Shown: positions 35,252 through 49,116, numbered from the stretch's first letter. The stretch: DNA of 64,000 bases from an uncultured Methanomicrobiales archaeon (GCA_963815625.1 CAWFHG010000004.1:14667-78666); one strand, 5' to 3'. The notes: generated from the sequence alone by a model not told the origin. Numbers and translations are program-made.

Positions 35252-36232
35252 TTACTCTGCCGGATTATCCTTTTCTGAACCTGAATCATTCTTACCTGTT
35301 CCCTTGTCCTTATCAGTCTTATCCGGCTCGTCCGAAAGCGGGAAATATTGCTGGTAGACACGCTTCCGCTCGTCCAGGTCCGTATGGAGGTAGATCTCCG
35401 TTGTCTTGATCGAAGAGTGGCCGAGGTTTTCCTGGACAACGCGGAGGTTTTTTGACCTGCGGAACAGCTCGCTTGCATAACTATGCCGGATTTTGTGAGG
35501 GGTAATTCCATCGGGGGCATATTTTTCAAACAGGTGCTGGACTGTTCTAGGGGAGATATGGTGCCCCTGCTGCCCGACAAAAAGCGGTCCTTCGATCCTG
35601 TTCCCGATGAAGGGCTCCATCTCCCGGAGCGTCTCCGGATCGACAAAGACAGTCCGTATCTTACCGCCTTTCCCCTTTATCCGGATTGTCTGCTCCTCAA
35701 AATCAATATCCTCGATATTCATATTACAGAGTTCGGATATCCTGACTCCTGTTGCGTAGATGGTCCGCACAATCAGTTTTTCCCTTGCATCAGGAATCGA
35801 GGCAATCAACCGGAGCACCTGGCTGTGTTTCAGGTACCGCAATTCCTGTTCCTTTATTCTCGGCCGCTCAACCCCGAACATGGGATTGGAAGCCAGTGCC
35901 CCCTGGGTATAGAGGAACCGGTAAAAAGAGGTAAGCGTGGAGATCATCCGGTGGAGTGTTTTTGGTTTGTAGTTACGGACCGAGTTCATAAATGTCAGGA
36001 AGTCGGTGAGCATAACCGGCTCCACCTCTACATCAGTGTCGAGGCGGGCATTTGCGTAATCCTTCCAAAGGTCCTGAAGCTTCTCGGGGTTGCTGTTTCT
36101 CCGGAGCCACAGGTAGTAGGCAAATTGTTTTACTACCTGCTCATAGCTGATGATAGTCCGGGGGGAATAATTCCGCATTCTGAGGTAGTATTCGTAGCGA
36201 TTGAGCCACTCCGAGAAATAACCACCCTGCAT
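35252..36232 (-). CDS. tyrosine recombinase / integrase (XerA/XerC/XerD-like)
   Basis: N-terminal SAM-like core-binding domain (YLRMRNYSPRTIISYEQVVKQF). Catalytic motifs ATGVRISEL (R), HKIRHSYAS (HxxR) and LGHSSIKTTEIYLH (H..Y). Unusual Lys/Asp-rich 30-aa tail. Confidence 0.85.
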   Translation of the reverse strand: MQGGYFSEWLNRYEYYLRMRNYSPRTIISYEQVVKQFAYYLWLRRNSNPEKLQDLWKDYANARLDTDVEVEPVMLTDFLTFMNSVRNYKPKTLHRMISTLTSFYRFLYTQGALASNPMFGVERPRIKEQELRYLKHSQVLRLIASIPDAREKLIVRTIYATGVRISELCNMNIEDIDFEEQTIRIKGKGGKIRTVFVDPETLREMEPFIGNRIEGPLFVGQQGHHISPRTVQHLFEKYAPDGITPHKIRHSYASELFRRSKNLRVVQENLGHSSIKTTEIYLHTDLDERKRVYQQYFPLSDEPDKTDKDKGTGKNDSGSEKDNPAE

Positions 36233-37602
36233 GGTCTATTCTTTATTCAGGACACATATAAAGGTTTTGCGTAGAATACCTATTCTGCGCAAGTACGGTT
36301 AGGCGGGAATTGTTACCGGGAGACATCCGAAAATTGTATTCTGATAGGAGTGATGATCTCTTGCACATTCTCCTTTCAACCCATCTGGCCTGGGCAGGGA
36401 GGCCAACCATACAAGTGGAGTCAACGGCCCTGGTGGTTCTGAAATGCCCAAAAAAAACGTGTGGAAAACAAACGATAATACGGGGCCATTATCCGCTCAA
36501 TAACTGCCGTTAACGTCAGGCTTCGATGTAATCCTCATTCAACGGCACAAGGAGGCGTTTTCGGACCTTTGCTCCGTTTTCTGGATCTTTTTCAGCTGTT
36601 TAGAGATGCTACGGCGTCTCCAAAACGGGGTCGCGATGAATTGGCATACTCCGGGTTGCAAAACTGGAGAATTTGAGTACGCGATCATTGTACATTCCGC
36701 ACAGATACCGTACTTGGGGTTAGCTCTCCCTTGTTGGACTCATGGTTAGCAAGGAGAAATATTTTCACTCTTCCAGTCGGCCACCCCGAGTTATGAACCT
36801 AAGCCATATAAGGGATATCTAAGCAAAACAATGGTATTTCAGAAATTGGGGTGGACACTATGAATAATGATTTCCCCGATGAGATCATAGAACATTCTGA
36901 ACGTTCACCTTTAGATTTACTCCTACATTTCAAGGGGAAACTGTTAAACGGGGTAATATAATTTGAATTCTCTTATTCGGGTGTTCCCATCAAAGACCCT
37001 ACAAGGTCATTTCCATACACTGATCCTAAAAATGAATAATCGGGATCAGATGATCCAGATCGCCCTCACCCTCACCATTAATGCAGAAAATCAGCACGAA
37101 ATACTGATTCTTGAAGTCTCATTTCTGGTGCGAAAACGGCGGGGGATCCGCGGTATGGATCAGGTGAGGATATTCGATCGCCAGATTAAAACTGGATTAT
37201 TACACCCGGATATGTCTTCAAAATCGTTTAACTTGGATTTAACGGGAAAAAACGGGAAGTATTTAGTCCCCTCCGGACGTGGGTATTTTCGGGTTTTGAT
37301 TGTCTGGAACCCGGCCGGCCGGATCTTCATCCAGAGGTAAACCGGCCGGAGAAATTTGTCCAGGAAGCGATCCAATTGGGGGGAGCCGGCATAGATAAAT
37401 AACTAAACTAATGGCTTTATTTTTTTAATTAATCATCAATTTTTTACATATCAGTAATTAATAGAGGAGATATATATTAACGAATAAATATAGCATAAAT
37501 ATTATGAAGGTTATCAAAAAGATTGAACGAAATTGGATTTTAATTTTTTTTTAATTATAATTATTGGGTTGAATATTGTCCTAATTTTGAGGGGGATCTT
37601 GA

Positions 37603-44453: not shown

Positions 44454-44735
44454 ATGAGAATGCAGACAATAGAGATCCATGTATCGGGAAAGGTCCAGAA
44501 AGTCGGATTCCGGAGTTGTGTTAAACGAATTGCACAGAAACTTAACATTCGTGGCGAGGTGATGAACCTTCCGGACGGTTCGGTCCGTATTCTCTCAACC
44601 GGAGAAAAAATTGTCCTTGATAAGTTTATATCTATGATATATGGTTGTCCGCGTGCGGTAATCAGGGATATGAAGACAACAGACCTGGAATTTCAGGAGT
44701 TTAACGAGTTCTCCGTAATCAAACCAAATATCTGA
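44454..44735 (+). CDS. acyP: acylphosphatase
   Basis: VSGKVQKVGFRSCV and GEVMNLPDGSVRI motifs. 93 aa. Confidence 0.85.
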   Translation: MRMQTIEIHVSGKVQKVGFRSCVKRIAQKLNIRGEVMNLPDGSVRILSTGEKIVLDKFISMIYGCPRAVIRDMKTTDLEFQEFNEFSVIKPNI

Positions 44736-45190
44736 TGAAGAATTGTTATTATTATTAATCATTGGCTCTTTCTCGCTTTTTCTTTATCATGTCCATGATT
44801 GATTTAATAAAAAGAATTCATGTTTTCAGTATTCCGGTGTTTTAAAAAAATTACGAGAGTCTAAAATCAATTTAATAAAGTTAAATCAGCCAGATATTAC
44901 TCATTTCTGTTTAAATTCAAAAAGATTCCACATTTTTTTCCTCCGGGTCTTCTGCACACATACTCTATTATAAACCTTATATTGCTATACAATATTGCTA
45001 GCCGCTTAAACACCGACGGGACGTTCTTTTATTAATAGTATGAACGATTTTTACCAAAACCAGTCCTGGATTATAAAATGCGTCCTTGTCGGCCACTGAG
45101 GGTAGTACAAGTACAACGAAAATTGGTTGTAATCGACACCAGGTCATATAATAACTGAAAAAAATCGGATCAATAAAAAAGGTGGAATTT

Positions 45191-46116
45191 TTACCGCTCA
45201 ATGATGTAATCTGTTTTTTCCAGTAGAGACTGGCGCAGGGTTGCCACCTGACGATCAATGAGATCCTGGTTAATGGTTCCATGGAAAAGTTGGATCAGTT
45301 CTTTCATGCAGGGGTCAGAAAGAATACACCGGGTGGGGCCGCGCTCGAAGTCCTGCTCGAGGAGATCCTCCCTGACGAACCTGATTGCTTCCCTGTCAAT
45401 CATGTCTGCCTTAAAGGGTTCCATGATATCATAGACTAGAGCTGATTTGCCACGGTTCAACATGCCGATATCGGGATCAAGACTGGCCCCGGTTACTGAG
45501 AACATAACATTCCCAAATAACATTGCATAACCAAATGCGAATATCGAATTGACAGGATCGTGGTATGGCCTGTCAGTCCGCCGCCTGAACCCAAACTCAG
45601 GGGGAGTGCGCGTGAAAGGACTTCGTAGTACATATCGTTAGTCAGTCGCTCGATCCTCCGGATCTCGCTGATTTTGATGAGATATTCCAGTTCATCAAAC
45701 GCATTTGAAAAAATTTGTAATTCTCCTTCATAAAAAAGTTCACTGCCCACAATTTCACCAAGTCTCCCGATAAGGAGGGTTTTGGATTTCATTGAGGCCC
45801 TTGCTATCGAAACAGCATAACGATAATTCGGTTCGTCCTTCTGGATTTTTGAAAATTTCTCCTCATCCTTGCTATCGAACGGACGAATTGTTCCAATTGG
45901 TTTACCATCAGCTTCAAAAAATGATAACCGGGCCCCTTTTTTCACAAGGTTCGCTATGGCAGGTGTATGGAGGGTATGGCCACCAATGATCAGGAGATGA
46001 CGTATTGACTCAAGCGGGTATTCCTCGGTTATTCCTTCTTTTTGCACGAACAATGTGTTCCGTGTCGATTTGATATGGGCACCAAAACCGGCCACTACAA
46101 GCCAGGGGACATCCAC
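45191..46116 (-). CDS. cas1: stand-alone Cas1-like integrase homologue (frameshift in the G5/C5 run at 45600-45604)
   Basis: N-terminal beta domain (LVVAGFGAHIKSTRNTLFV...SIRHLLIIGGHTLHTPAIANLVKKGARLSFFEADGKPIG). After frame repair the C-terminal domain reads IERLTNDMYYEVLSRALPPEFGFRRRTDRPYHDPVNSIFAFGYAMLFGNV...SLDPDIGMLNRGKSALVYDIMEPFKADMID, which follows the Cas1 consensus. Confidence 0.8.
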
Positions 46117-46522
46117 GTGATTCCTTTCCTAAAAAGCCAGTATTCGAGCCTCTATAACTATTAAAAACGTGACACCAATAAATTAAGGCATCGTTTTTTT
46201 ACATTGATACAATCGGTTACTGCTGACAGGAGATTATGTAAAAGAACAGTCATTAAATCGGAAGGACAAATACCACTGCGACGTGTGTCCCCGCAATTAT
46301 CTGAAGGGAGGAGGATCGGTTACAGAATCGTGCCATGGTTCCATTAACACCATGCCGTGTTTTGACAACCTTATATACACGCCGCGATAATATTGTTTTG
46401 AGATATAACCGAAATCCGGCAGGATTTGAGCAGGAAATTTTGGTTCGGTGATAGGATGAGAATCCGAATAACATCCGGGAGATCGTTTGAACTCAGATCG
46501 GTTCCGGGAGGAGATGCAGGGA

Positions 46523-47812
46523 ATGTTCTGGGATGAAGGTAAAGAAACGCTGGCGCCGGATGAACTGGCAATACTCCAGCTGAAACGACTGAAAAAAACG
46601 TTGAAAAGTGCTCAGAATATAGAATTTTACCGCAACCAGTTTTCTGAATCTGGGATCAGGGTATCTGACATCCGGACACTCGAAGATGTCAGGAAACTTC
46701 CTTTTACAAAGAAACAGGATCTCAGAAGCGGTTATCCCTTTGGATTTCTGGCAGTACCGCTTAAACATGTAGTCAGGATACATACAACTTCCGGGACAAC
46801 CGGTAAACCGACAGTAGTCTGCTATACCAGGAATGATCTGGAGGCCTGGTCGGAGCTTATCGCAAGGAATATGACGATGATCGGACTTGGGGAAAATGAC
46901 GTATTCCAGAATATGGTTAATTATGGCATGTTTACCGGTGGCCTGGGATTCCACTACGGTGCTGAAAAGATCGGGATGACGGTGATCCCGAGTGCAACGG
47001 GTAATACAACACGACAGATAGAAATGATCCAGGATTTCGGGGTTACAGCAATTCATTGTACACCAAGTTATGCAATGCATCTGGCAGAGGTTGCAGAGGA
47101 ACGACATGCAGACCTTCCTTCTTTGAAAACCGGGATCTTTGGAGCCGAACCATGGTCTGAATCGATGAGATCGGAGCTCGAAGAAAAACTCGGGGTGACG
47201 GCGTACGATTCTTATGGCCTTTCAGAATTATTCGGGCCTGGAGTTGCATTCGAATGCACGGAAAGGAACGGTCTTCATATCTGGCATGACTACTACCTTG
47301 TCGAGATAATCAATCCGCAGACAGGAGAAGTACTGGATAGCGGGGAGCGTGGGGAACTCGTCGTAACACCCCTGTTAAAGGAGGCTATGCCATTGCTCAG
47401 GTACCGGACAGGTGACGTTACCTTCAGGATGGAGGATGGGTGCCTGTGCAGGCGTATGCCGAAGATCGGAAGAATTACGGGTAGAAGTGATGATATGCTT
47501 GTAATCAGGGGAATAAACGTCTTTCCATCACAGATTGAACATGTTCTTCTTTCCATGCCAGAGGTTGGAAACCAGTTTATGGTATACATCGACCGGGTCA
47601 ACCACCTTGATGAGATGTCAATCGAGGTCGAGATGAACCGTGAGTATTTCCATGGTGAACTCCAGGACCTCGCAAGGATCCAGGCGAAAGTCGTAAAAGG
47701 CCTTCGGGATGTGCTTGAACTCCGGACATCGGTAAAATTGGTCGAACCTGGTTCCCTCCCGAGGTTTGAAGGGAAAGCAAAAAGGGTAATCGATCGAAGA
47801 GGTGACATGTAA
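46523..47812 (+). CDS. phenylacetate--CoA ligase family adenylate-forming enzyme (PaaK / coenzyme F390 synthetase-like), copy 1
   Basis: MFWDEGKETL start about 10 nt after GGAGGAG. HTTSGTTGKPT P-loop, YGLSE, and PRFEGKAKRVIDRR at the C-terminus. Confidence 0.85.
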   Translation: MFWDEGKETLAPDELAILQLKRLKKTLKSAQNIEFYRNQFSESGIRVSDIRTLEDVRKLPFTKKQDLRSGYPFGFLAVPLKHVVRIHTTSGTTGKPTVVCYTRNDLEAWSELIARNMTMIGLGENDVFQNMVNYGMFTGGLGFHYGAEKIGMTVIPSATGNTTRQIEMIQDFGVTAIHCTPSYAMHLAEVAEERHADLPSLKTGIFGAEPWSESMRSELEEKLGVTAYDSYGLSELFGPGVAFECTERNGLHIWHDYYLVEIINPQTGEVLDSGERGELVVTPLLKEAMPLLRYRTGDVTFRMEDGCLCRRMPKIGRITGRSDDMLVIRGINVFPSQIEHVLLSMPEVGNQFMVYIDRVNHLDEMSIEVEMNREYFHGELQDLARIQAKVVKGLRDVLELRTSVKLVEPGSLPRFEGKAKRVIDRRGDM

Positions 47813-47814
47813 CT

Positions 47815-49116
47815 ATGGTGATGTGGGACCCGACAATCGAGCAAATGCCGAAGGAAGATATCAGGAAACTCCAGTACCGCCTGCTGAAGACCCTTGTGAA
47901 CCGGTTATATAGCTTTTCCCCATTTTATCATGACCGGATGAAACAGGCAAAGATCCATCCCGATGACATAACCACTCTTGCCGACGTTAAAAAACTCCCT
48001 TTCATGTACAAGGCGGATCTTCGGGATAATTACCCGGACCAGCTTTTCACTGCCACAAGGGATGAGTTGGTCAGGTACCATGTTTCATCCGGAACTACCG
48101 GAAAACCTACCGTGGTCGGATATACCGCGCATGATCTTGATAACTGGACCGTCTCGCTGGCCCGGGGCCTTGTCTCGTGCGGGCTCGGCCGGGGCGACGT
48201 GATACAAGTGAGTTATGGGTATGGGTTGTTCACCGGGGGACTTGGGCTTCACTATGGTGCGGAAAGGATTGGGGCCACCGTCCTACCGACAAGTGTCGGA
48301 AATACCGAGCGGCAGATCGAACTCATGCAGGACCTACATGCGACCGCAATCTGTTGCACACCTTCATATCTTCTCCATATGGGAGAGGTCGCAGAGAAGA
48401 TGGGCATTAGTATCAAGAAAGACACGGATCTCACGACCGGCATTCTTGGTGCGGAGCCATGGACCGACCTGATGCGGTCCCGGATGCAGGAATGGCTGGG
48501 AATCAGGGCATATGACATCTATGGGACCAGTGAACTTTCGGGTCCGATGTTCGTTGAATGCACGGAGCAGAAAGGATTCCACATATGGTCCGACCTGGCC
48601 CTCGTCGAAGTGCTCGACAAGGATACCGGAGAGACAATGGCGCCTGGGGAAAGAGGGGAACTCGTAATCACAATGCTCCAGAAAGAAGCACTCCCGATGA
48701 TCAGGTTCCGGATAGGGGATGTATCCGTCCTTGACGAGGAGCCCTGTGCATGTGGGCGGACCCATCCGCGTGTCCGGCGCATCCAGGGAAGGGTTGATGA
48801 TATGCTGATTATCAGGGGAATCAATGTCTTCCCATCCCAGGTGGAACATACTCTGATGTCGATCCCCGAAGTAGGGCAGCACTTTCAGATCGTGGTCGAT
48901 CGCCGGGGCGCGCTTGACGATATGCTCGTACGGGTCGAGATCTCAAAAGATGCATTTTCAGACAAAATCAACGACCTGATGCAGATCAGGTCCAATGTAG
49001 AGCACAAACTCCGTAATGCCCTTAATGTTAGCGTAAATGTTGAACTGGTCGAGCCAGGGTCACTACCCCGGTTCGAAGGAAAATCAAAGAAGGTTATTGA
49101 CAGGAGGAATCTGTAA
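47815..49116 (+). CDS. phenylacetate--CoA ligase family enzyme, copy 2
   Basis: Paralogue of the preceding gene (HVSSGTTGKPT, YGTSE, PRFEGKSKKVIDRR). It starts 3 nt after the copy 1 stop. Confidence 0.85.
   Translation: MVMWDPTIEQMPKEDIRKLQYRLLKTLVNRLYSFSPFYHDRMKQAKIHPDDITTLADVKKLPFMYKADLRDNYPDQLFTATRDELVRYHVSSGTTGKPTVVGYTAHDLDNWTVSLARGLVSCGLGRGDVIQVSYGYGLFTGGLGLHYGAERIGATVLPTSVGNTERQIELMQDLHATAICCTPSYLLHMGEVAEKMGISIKKDTDLTTGILGAEPWTDLMRSRMQEWLGIRAYDIYGTSELSGPMFVECTEQKGFHIWSDLALVEVLDKDTGETMAPGERGELVITMLQKEALPMIRFRIGDVSVLDEEPCACGRTHPRVRRIQGRVDDMLIIRGINVFPSQVEHTLMSIPEVGQHFQIVVDRRGALDDMLVRVEISKDAFSDKINDLMQIRSNVEHKLRNALNVSVNVELVEPGSLPRFEGKSKKVIDRRNL

Follow-up and report, generated by a model that had tools for sequence, protein, structure and literature searches.

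The gene at 45191-46116 of the 64-kb stretch of archaeal DNA analysed here (called the window) is the local ortholog of the already described Cas1-solo group 1 and carries the active-site defect already described for that group. The comparisons presented below are best explained, in our judgement with a probability somewhat better than even, by a vertically inherited, single-gene Cas1 derivative of the Methanomicrobiales that would have a non-catalytic role in DNA binding or as a scaffold, the break in its reading frame being an assembly error. Both CRISPR adaptation and casposons rest on Cas1 as their integrase. In the present case a whole archaeal order has long maintained, at a single locus and under strong selection, a derivative that lacks the catalytic site; it would exemplify the recruitment of an integrase to another cellular role. 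The question of what group 1 does dates from 2013. What is added here is one ortholog and, from the comparison, universal synteny, unconstrained catalytic positions, a set of family-specific invariant residues and a conserved upstream motif. These comparative facts would not surprise a CRISPR specialist, and the function is not revealed by them.

The gene and its product

The gene is located on the minus strand and has a GTG start at 46116. As given, it consists of two overlapping ORFs, 45493-46116 (207 aa, starting with the GTG) and 45191-45523 (110 aa), whose frames join at a run of five Cs on the gene strand. Addition of one C to this run yields a 308-aa protein reading ...YYEVLSRALPPEFGFRRRTDRPYHDPVN..., in agreement with the preliminary description of the locus, which had proposed the loss of one nucleotide from a C run and a product of roughly this length. 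The repaired protein matched the Pfam family Cas_Cas1 (PF01867) end to end (profile positions 1-281 of 283, E 7.1e-51, 173.5 bits with a cut-off of 22.3) and the NCBIfam model TIGR00287 (cas1) with 142.3 bits, the cut-off being 71.7; none of the subtype-specific cut-offs was reached. An AlphaFold2 model, predicted from a 30-sequence alignment of the family, had a pLDDT of 92.1 and a pTM of 0.91. When this model was used in a Foldseek search, the top 50 PDB matches were all Cas1 or casposase (TM 0.81-0.86). Judged from the profile match and the predicted structure, the gene encodes a full-length Cas1 homologue with the complete two-domain Cas1 fold (N-terminal beta and C-terminal helical domain), and the earlier impression that the Cas1 consensus runs through both domains was correct. 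The features of the locus are collected in Table 1.

Table 1. Features of the cas1-solo locus and single-base indels private to the window (window coordinates)
Feature	Position	Strand	Remarks
cas1-solo (group 1) gene	45191..46116	-	308 aa after one C restored; Pfam, NCBIfam, AlphaFold2, Foldseek, group-1 identity
G5 run (C5 on gene strand), one base missing	45600..45604	.	relatives read CTx-CCx-CCx-GAG (Leu-Pro-Pro-Glu)
Codon AAC, Asn221, catalytic His position (E. coli Cas1 H208)	45455..45457	-	alignments to solved Cas1 structures
Codon GAG, Glu156, catalytic Glu position (E. coli E141)	45649..45651	-	retained in window subclade
Asp230 codon (45428-45430) and Glu233 codon (45419-45421)	45419..45430	-	Asp230 invariant in family and canonical Cas1; Glu233 variable across family
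Conserved upstream motif AACGATG-NN-TTAAT(Y)	46181..46195	-	14-nt motif, 65 nt before GTG start
Divergent intergenic region, cas1-solo to paaK operon	46117..46486	.	two conserved blocks in window clade
acyP (acylphosphatase), convergent downstream neighbour	44454..44735	+	immediately downstream, convergent in 85/85 loci
Two PaaK-type AMP-forming ligase genes (46487-47812 and 47815-49116)	46487..49116	+	divergent from cas1-solo; conserved context
Indel in glmM	about 43796		deletion, single base
Indel in cas1	45600-45604		deletion, single base
Indel in ACT-domain gene	about 49393		insertion, single base
Indel in OMP-decarboxylase/RraA fusion	about 50501		insertion, single base
Indel in nitroreductase	about 51312		insertion, single base

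Relationship to Cas1-solo group 1

In an exhaustive search of 50%-identity cluster representatives, full-length members of the family scored between 190 and 349 bits, whereas all other matches, which were canonical Cas1 proteins 23-32% identical to the window protein, did not exceed 100 bits. Likewise, a neighbour-joining tree built from 30 family and 83 canonical sequences, which is a distance tree only and from which casposases were left out, set the family apart as one bipartition in all of 100 bootstraps. The window protein can be aligned over 273 residues without a gap, and with 44% identity (E 3e-96), to the group-1 member of Methanosphaerula palustris (gi 219852754), whose sequence was taken from the supplementary alignment of Krupovic 2014 (PMC4046053). 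Taking into account the Pfam and NCBIfam matches, the fold, the identity to the M. palustris protein, the clade in the neighbour-joining tree, the score gap and the literature, we assign the gene to group 1. The stand-alone Cas1 homologue noticed in the preliminary description thus belongs to a clade apart from CRISPR-linked Cas1.

A passage of Krupovic 2014 (BMC Biol 12:36, PMC4046053), citing Makarova 2013 (Makarova, Wolf & Koonin, Biochem Soc Trans), describes Cas1-solo group 1 as exclusive to Methanomicrobiales and without evidence of horizontal transfer. In the same paper the group is reported to lack a complete active site, its data set comprises 8-9 genomes, and the supplementary alignment contains members from Methanospirillum, Methanoregula, Methanosphaerula, Methanoplanus, Methanoculleus and Methanocorpusculum. 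No functional follow-up on group 1 was present in a 2023 review or found in literature searches. The window gene is likewise without linked CRISPR or cas genes, has an incomplete tetrad, comes from Methanomicrobiales and displays no sign of horizontal transfer, and its product has the signatures PWLxVxGFGAHIKST, EIRRxxRLxxDMYYE and FRRRTxRPxxDPVN in common with the group. Nothing essential sets it apart; it represents a new ortholog, which stems from an uncultured lineage resembling Methanoregulaceae. The differences are in detail: the clade of the window protein has Asn for the His and keeps the Glu, most of the family instead has His for the Glu, and a few close relatives of the window protein have a nominal E-H-D-E set, which is absent from the 2014 data set of 8-9 genomes.

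Catalytic positions and selection

The catalytic tetrad of canonical Cas1 is Glu-His-Asp-Asp/Glu (E141, H208, D218 and D221 in the E. coli protein). In phmmer alignments to proteins of solved structure, the GMLN of the window protein was opposite GFLH of A. fulgidus Cas1 (4N06), SYLH of P. furiosus Cas1 (7EI1) and GFLH of Synechocystis Cas1 (7CR6), so that the catalytic His is replaced by Asn221. With these three structures and 83 canonical representatives as reference, the catalytic set of the window protein is E-N-D-E (Glu156, Asn221, Asp230 and Glu233). The Asn in place of the catalytic His, previously seen by eye, is therefore confirmed by proper alignment, which does not restore a His at this position.

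All 83 canonical representatives have E-H-D-E/D (E-H-D-D in one case), whereas a complete tetrad was present in none of the 30 family sequences compared. Among 81 species-level sequences of the family, 24 residue combinations occur at the four catalytic positions (HHDE, HHDD, SHDG, ENDE, HNDE, NSDD, YSDS and others), the residues seen there include L, Y, F, S, G, K and R, and only Asp230 is invariant. The entropies at positions 156, 221 and 233 are 1.79, 1.68 and 1.43 bits, respectively, as compared with 1.32 bits for the median site. The Glu at position 156 is kept in the subclade of the window protein, but most of the family has His, Ser, Asn, Tyr or Leu there. The statement that the acidic residues are retained is correct for the window sequence itself (E156, D230 and E233) but cannot be extended to the family, in which position 233 is Gly in 9 and Ser in 1 of the 81 species.

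Within the window subclade (80-91% identity) position 221 is encoded by AAC (Asn), CAC (His) or AAA (Lys), or is Tyr, via single-base changes; as a consequence of this switching, a few close relatives (L010, L012, P0007, P0009, P0015 and P0018) are nominally complete E-H-D-E proteins. This variation looks like neutral wandering, and not like a conserved catalytic residue. Constraint on the positions of the catalytic Glu, the His and the second acidic residue has been lost across the Cas1-solo family. The altered or lost integrase chemistry suggested in the preliminary description gains support from the finding that three catalytic positions vary at least as much as the average site over the 81 species while the tetrad is intact in 83 of 83 canonical proteins; the role outside adaptation that was suggested with it is supported as well.

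The CRISPR-associated Cas1 proteins 4N06, 7EI1 and 7CR6 have the same two-domain fold as the window protein (TM 0.81-0.86) at 22-32% sequence identity, and they have the core motif residues R180, P184, D187, N190, Y197, G218, D230 and D241 in common with it. The window gene differs from them in its E-N-D-E tetrad and in having neither cas2 nor an array near it in the window. The group-1 family differs from them not only in the unconstrained Glu, His and second acidic positions but also in a 4-residue deletion just after the His position, common to all members (30 family sequences compared with canonical ones), in an invariant Arg (Arg154) in place of the Gly of the canonical G-x-E-G, which precedes the catalytic Glu by two residues and is present in 80 of 83 canonical sequences, and in which residues of the N-terminal domain are invariant.

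Strong purifying selection acts on the gene as a whole. Pairwise dN/dS values among nine close orthologs were between 0.06 and 0.14, and the terminal branch of the window sequence is no exception (dN about 0.04, dS about 0.66, ratio about 0.06). The structural core of Cas1, with its conserved motifs facing the DNA, is kept in the family (Q92, Y163, R180, P184, D187, N190, G196, Y197, G218, L227, D230 and D241). In addition, about 38 positions reach a conservation of 95% or more among family members but not among canonical Cas1 proteins, many of them in the N-terminal beta domain (W5, G10, F11, H14, K16, G46, H47, F67, E68, D70 and P73). This family-specific residue pattern suggests a new function rather than decay.

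The likeliest alternative, although in our view an improbable one, is that nuclease or integrase activity persists on the basis of an altered active site, consisting of Glu156, Asp230 and Glu233 with Asn221 in the window clade and having His156 for the Glu in most of the family. It would agree with the invariance of D230, with the acidic residue at position 233 in most members, with a His at either 156 or 221 in about 80% of the species and with the occurrence of full E-H-D-E in 2 of the 81 species and in several metagenomic relatives; an alternative catalytic residue set for group 1 was in fact mentioned, as a less likely possibility, in PMC4046053. It is harder to reconcile with positions 156, 221 and 233 being more variable than the median site and with the 24 combinations, among which there is no fixed alternative set, while canonical Cas1 is invariable at the catalytic positions (83 of 83). 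According to a passage of PMC4046053 that cites the original literature, alanine at any of the four positions abolishes the activity of E. coli Cas1, and D230 is conserved in every Cas1 for structural reasons as well. As a counterpoint to lost catalysis, the window subclade keeps Glu156, Asp230 and Glu233 and includes the few full E-H-D-E relatives, so in this subclade a residual metal-dependent activity of Cas1-solo is possible.

Origin of the frameshift

Eight close relatives of the window protein (80-87% identical) are all in frame and 308 aa long, with Leu-Pro-Pro-Glu at the site of the frameshift (e.g. CTCCCCCCGGAG). The cas1 frameshift is one of five single-base indels, located within 8 kb, that are private to the window in comparison with at least five related species and that each split a conserved gene (Table 1); they comprise two deletions and three insertions and are not all in homopolymers. 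Apart from this one lesion the cas1-solo copy is free of internal stops and colinear over its full length with the intact 308-aa orthologs, and the further inactivating lesions that would mark a degraded remnant, a possibility raised in the preliminary description, were not found in the gene. The five private indels, the intact relatives and the low dN/dS of the window branch together make an assembly or sequencing artefact the best reading of the frameshift, and a very probable one.

That the gene is a true pseudogene, inactivated recently, we consider quite unlikely. The reading frame is certainly broken in the sequence as given, and the neighbouring genes are broken too, which could be a sign of genome decay. 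This interpretation is, however, at variance with the single lesion in an otherwise stop-free, colinear gene and with the ratio of about 0.06 on the window terminal branch. Moreover, the other broken genes include glmM and the OMP-decarboxylase fusion, which we take to be core housekeeping genes, and the single 1-nt indels that break them are lacking in at least five related species, which fits assembly error better. The window probably derives from an error-prone assembly with single-base indel errors, and apparent pseudogenes elsewhere in it need caution. Programmed frameshifting was also considered and was rejected, every relative being in frame at the cas1 site.

Distribution and synteny

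A search of 5.8 billion proteins yielded 857 relatives of the window protein. The best 120 of these were nearly all 308-310 aa long, and those with a named source were from Methanoregulaceae or Methanoregula. When one genome per GTDB species was scanned, relatives were found in 239 genomes; among the best 80 of the 239 species matches, which include Methanoregula, Methanolinea, Methanoculleus and unnamed MAGs, 77 were titled as Methanomicrobiales taxa, two only as Methanobacteriota, and the remaining one was a contig of 2.5 kb. On this contig (L075, CAYLVY010000275.1), binned as 'Draconibacterium' (Bacteroidota), the family member has the typical paaK/cas1/acyP order; it is probably a mis-binned methanogen contig and not a case of horizontal transfer.

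On the acyP side, cas1-solo is followed by acyP, glmM and genes for a periplasmic binding protein and DUF5806, and on the other side there is a divergent paaK-paaK-ACT operon. The identities of the neighbours (glmM, acyP and the two PaaK-type ligases) were derived from orthology to annotated loci and agree with the housekeeping genes recognized before. When the synteny was compared across Methanomicrobiales, all 85 loci, ranging from Methanoregula to Methanoculleus, had the order paaK (divergent), cas1, acyP (convergent). This order is maintained down to Cas1 identities of only 47-53%, the neighbouring PaaK proteins being about 80% identical. The identical synteny in all 85 loci is strong evidence that the Cas1-solo locus is vertically inherited and not mobile. 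The convergent acyP is conserved context and not an operon partner of cas1-solo. The neighbour genes in the window are about 90% identical to those of Methanomicrobiales/Methanoregulaceae MAGs, which places the host of the window in this group.

In Methanoregula sp. SKADARSKE-2 (L005/L025, CP121470.1, around 281-302 kb), whose 1.95-Mb genome contains IS elements (rve, IS110), paaK1 and glmM of the locus have been lost or fragmented, and an intact 309-aa cas1-solo still adjoins acyP. This retention hints that cas1-solo is not dispensable.

Surroundings of the gene in the window and in related loci

No CRISPR array was found in the 64-kb window by Tandem Repeats Finder, Rfam or a k-mer spacing scan. 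In a PADLOC scan of 80 non-overlapping window ORFs, Cas1 models were the only cas models among the 25 families listed, the remaining listed matches being generic AAA-ATPase/helicase-type models accounted for by the Cdc48 gene; 7 further, weaker families all had E values above 6e-5. The earlier statement that the 64 kb contain no array, cas2, cas4 or effector gene is in line with these scans, and no complete CRISPR-cas locus to which the gene could belong lies within the window. The four window ORFs of about 600 aa or more encode a RecJ/DHH-type protein, an ADP-forming acyl-CoA synthetase, Cdc48 and a PMT-type glycosyltransferase, with no PolB among them, and no inverted repeats bracketing cas1-solo were detected in the window; the gene is thus not part of a complete casposon, as had been suggested before. 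A permissive Rfam search of 44650-46550 for structured RNAs gave only chance-level matches (E of 0.5 or more).

The related loci provided the same picture. There was no CRISPR array in the 85 loci (about 1 Mb), and no cas Pfam family among the neighbours of representative loci. The sole repeat match in the 85 loci, at 9677-9977 of L036, an uncultured Methanomicrobiales chromosome, was rejected as a CRISPR: it is a head-to-tail tandem repeat of 57 nt (5.3 copies, 93% matches) between glmM and DUF5806.

A gene for a tyrosine recombinase (Phage_integrase family, E 4e-35) is located at 35255-36235 on the minus strand of the window, at a distance of about 9 kb from cas1-solo. Orthologs occur on the corresponding side in all three related loci that reach that far (the P0005 contig, L001 and L003/L004), so the enzyme is likely a chromosomal recombinase of the Xer type that has been conserved, and not the mark of a prophage.

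It is very improbable that the protein is an adaptation Cas1 acting in trans for a CRISPR-cas system elsewhere in the genome. Our view is limited to 64 kb of this genome, and some Methanomicrobiales also carry a canonical Cas1, as illustrated by Methanoregula formicica, which has both a group-1 and a canonical Cas1 in the alignment of PMC4046053. Against such a role stand the lack of cas genes near the representative related loci and of arrays in the 85 loci and in the window, the fixation of the locus by descent, the lack of constraint on the catalytic positions and the separation of the family from all CRISPR-linked Cas1 proteins.

The casposase of A. boonei (6OPM) is, like the product of the window gene, a stand-alone Cas1 homologue not linked to CRISPR (TM 0.84), but casposases keep all four catalytic residues (PMC4046053), are patchily distributed and belong to mobile elements that encode PolB and have terminal inverted repeats, whereas the window gene is immobile, alone and catalytically degenerate. 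That it is a casposon remnant encoding a decayed casposase can hardly be entertained: the structural similarity to 6OPM is as high as to CRISPR Cas1, but PolB, terminal inverted repeats and other element genes are missing from the window, the tetrad is incomplete, the chromosomal position is the same in 85 of 85 loci across genera, and group 1 and the casposases (group 2) fall into different clades of the published phylogeny (PMC4046053).

Possible role

In the explanation that we prefer, a vertically inherited and non-catalytic Cas1 derivative, the Cas1-solo protein would have given up its function as a spacer or casposon integrase. It would instead serve a housekeeping process specific to this lineage, binding DNA or acting as a scaffold without catalysis, probably as a dimer. 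For a protein with the Cas1 fold, DNA repair, recombination or chromosome handling would be the most natural guess. The gene is monocistronic, and its expression would depend on a conserved promoter or operator of its own. The proposal of a DNA-binding or scaffold role is drawn entirely from the predicted fold and the pattern of conserved residues; acyP and paaK, which are not co-transcribed with cas1-solo and are metabolically unrelated, give no functional clue. It is conceivable, but in our opinion rather improbable, that the invariant N-terminal residues H14, K16, H47, E68 and D70, with W5 and F11, form a new metal-, ligand- or partner-binding site and that AACGATG-NN-TTAAT is an (auto)regulatory operator. 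Group-1 Cas1-solo would then be a neofunctionalised protein and more than a dead integrase; if true, this would be a second, independent domestication of Cas1, for a cellular function unrelated to immunity or transposition.

Upstream motif and intergenic spacers

With two mismatches allowed at most, the motif AACGATG-NN-TTAAT was detected upstream of cas1-solo in 80 of the 81 species, which belong to different genera; its distance from codon 1 is mostly 70-79 nt. In the related loci, about 1 Mb in total, it was encountered a single time per locus and at no other place, and the window likewise has one copy. The motif probably serves cas1-solo as a promoter or operator. The possibility that the motif represents a mini-ORF (ATG-NNT-TAA) was rejected: the variable bases would be at codon positions 1 and 2 and the fixed base at position 3, the reverse of a coding pattern. 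In Methanoregula there is a second, weaker block (GGnAGTAATTAGAT) about 20 nt downstream of the motif.

The spacer between cas1 and acyP is about 450 nt long in the window clade and divergent, except for a conserved 21-nt block, TATAGCAAYATAWGGTTTATA on the cas1 strand, at 44969-44989 of the window. In Methanoregula this spacer is lacking, and cas1 and acyP almost meet at their 3' ends. The 21-nt block is TATA-box-like and could serve a small transcript antisense to acyP or cas1.
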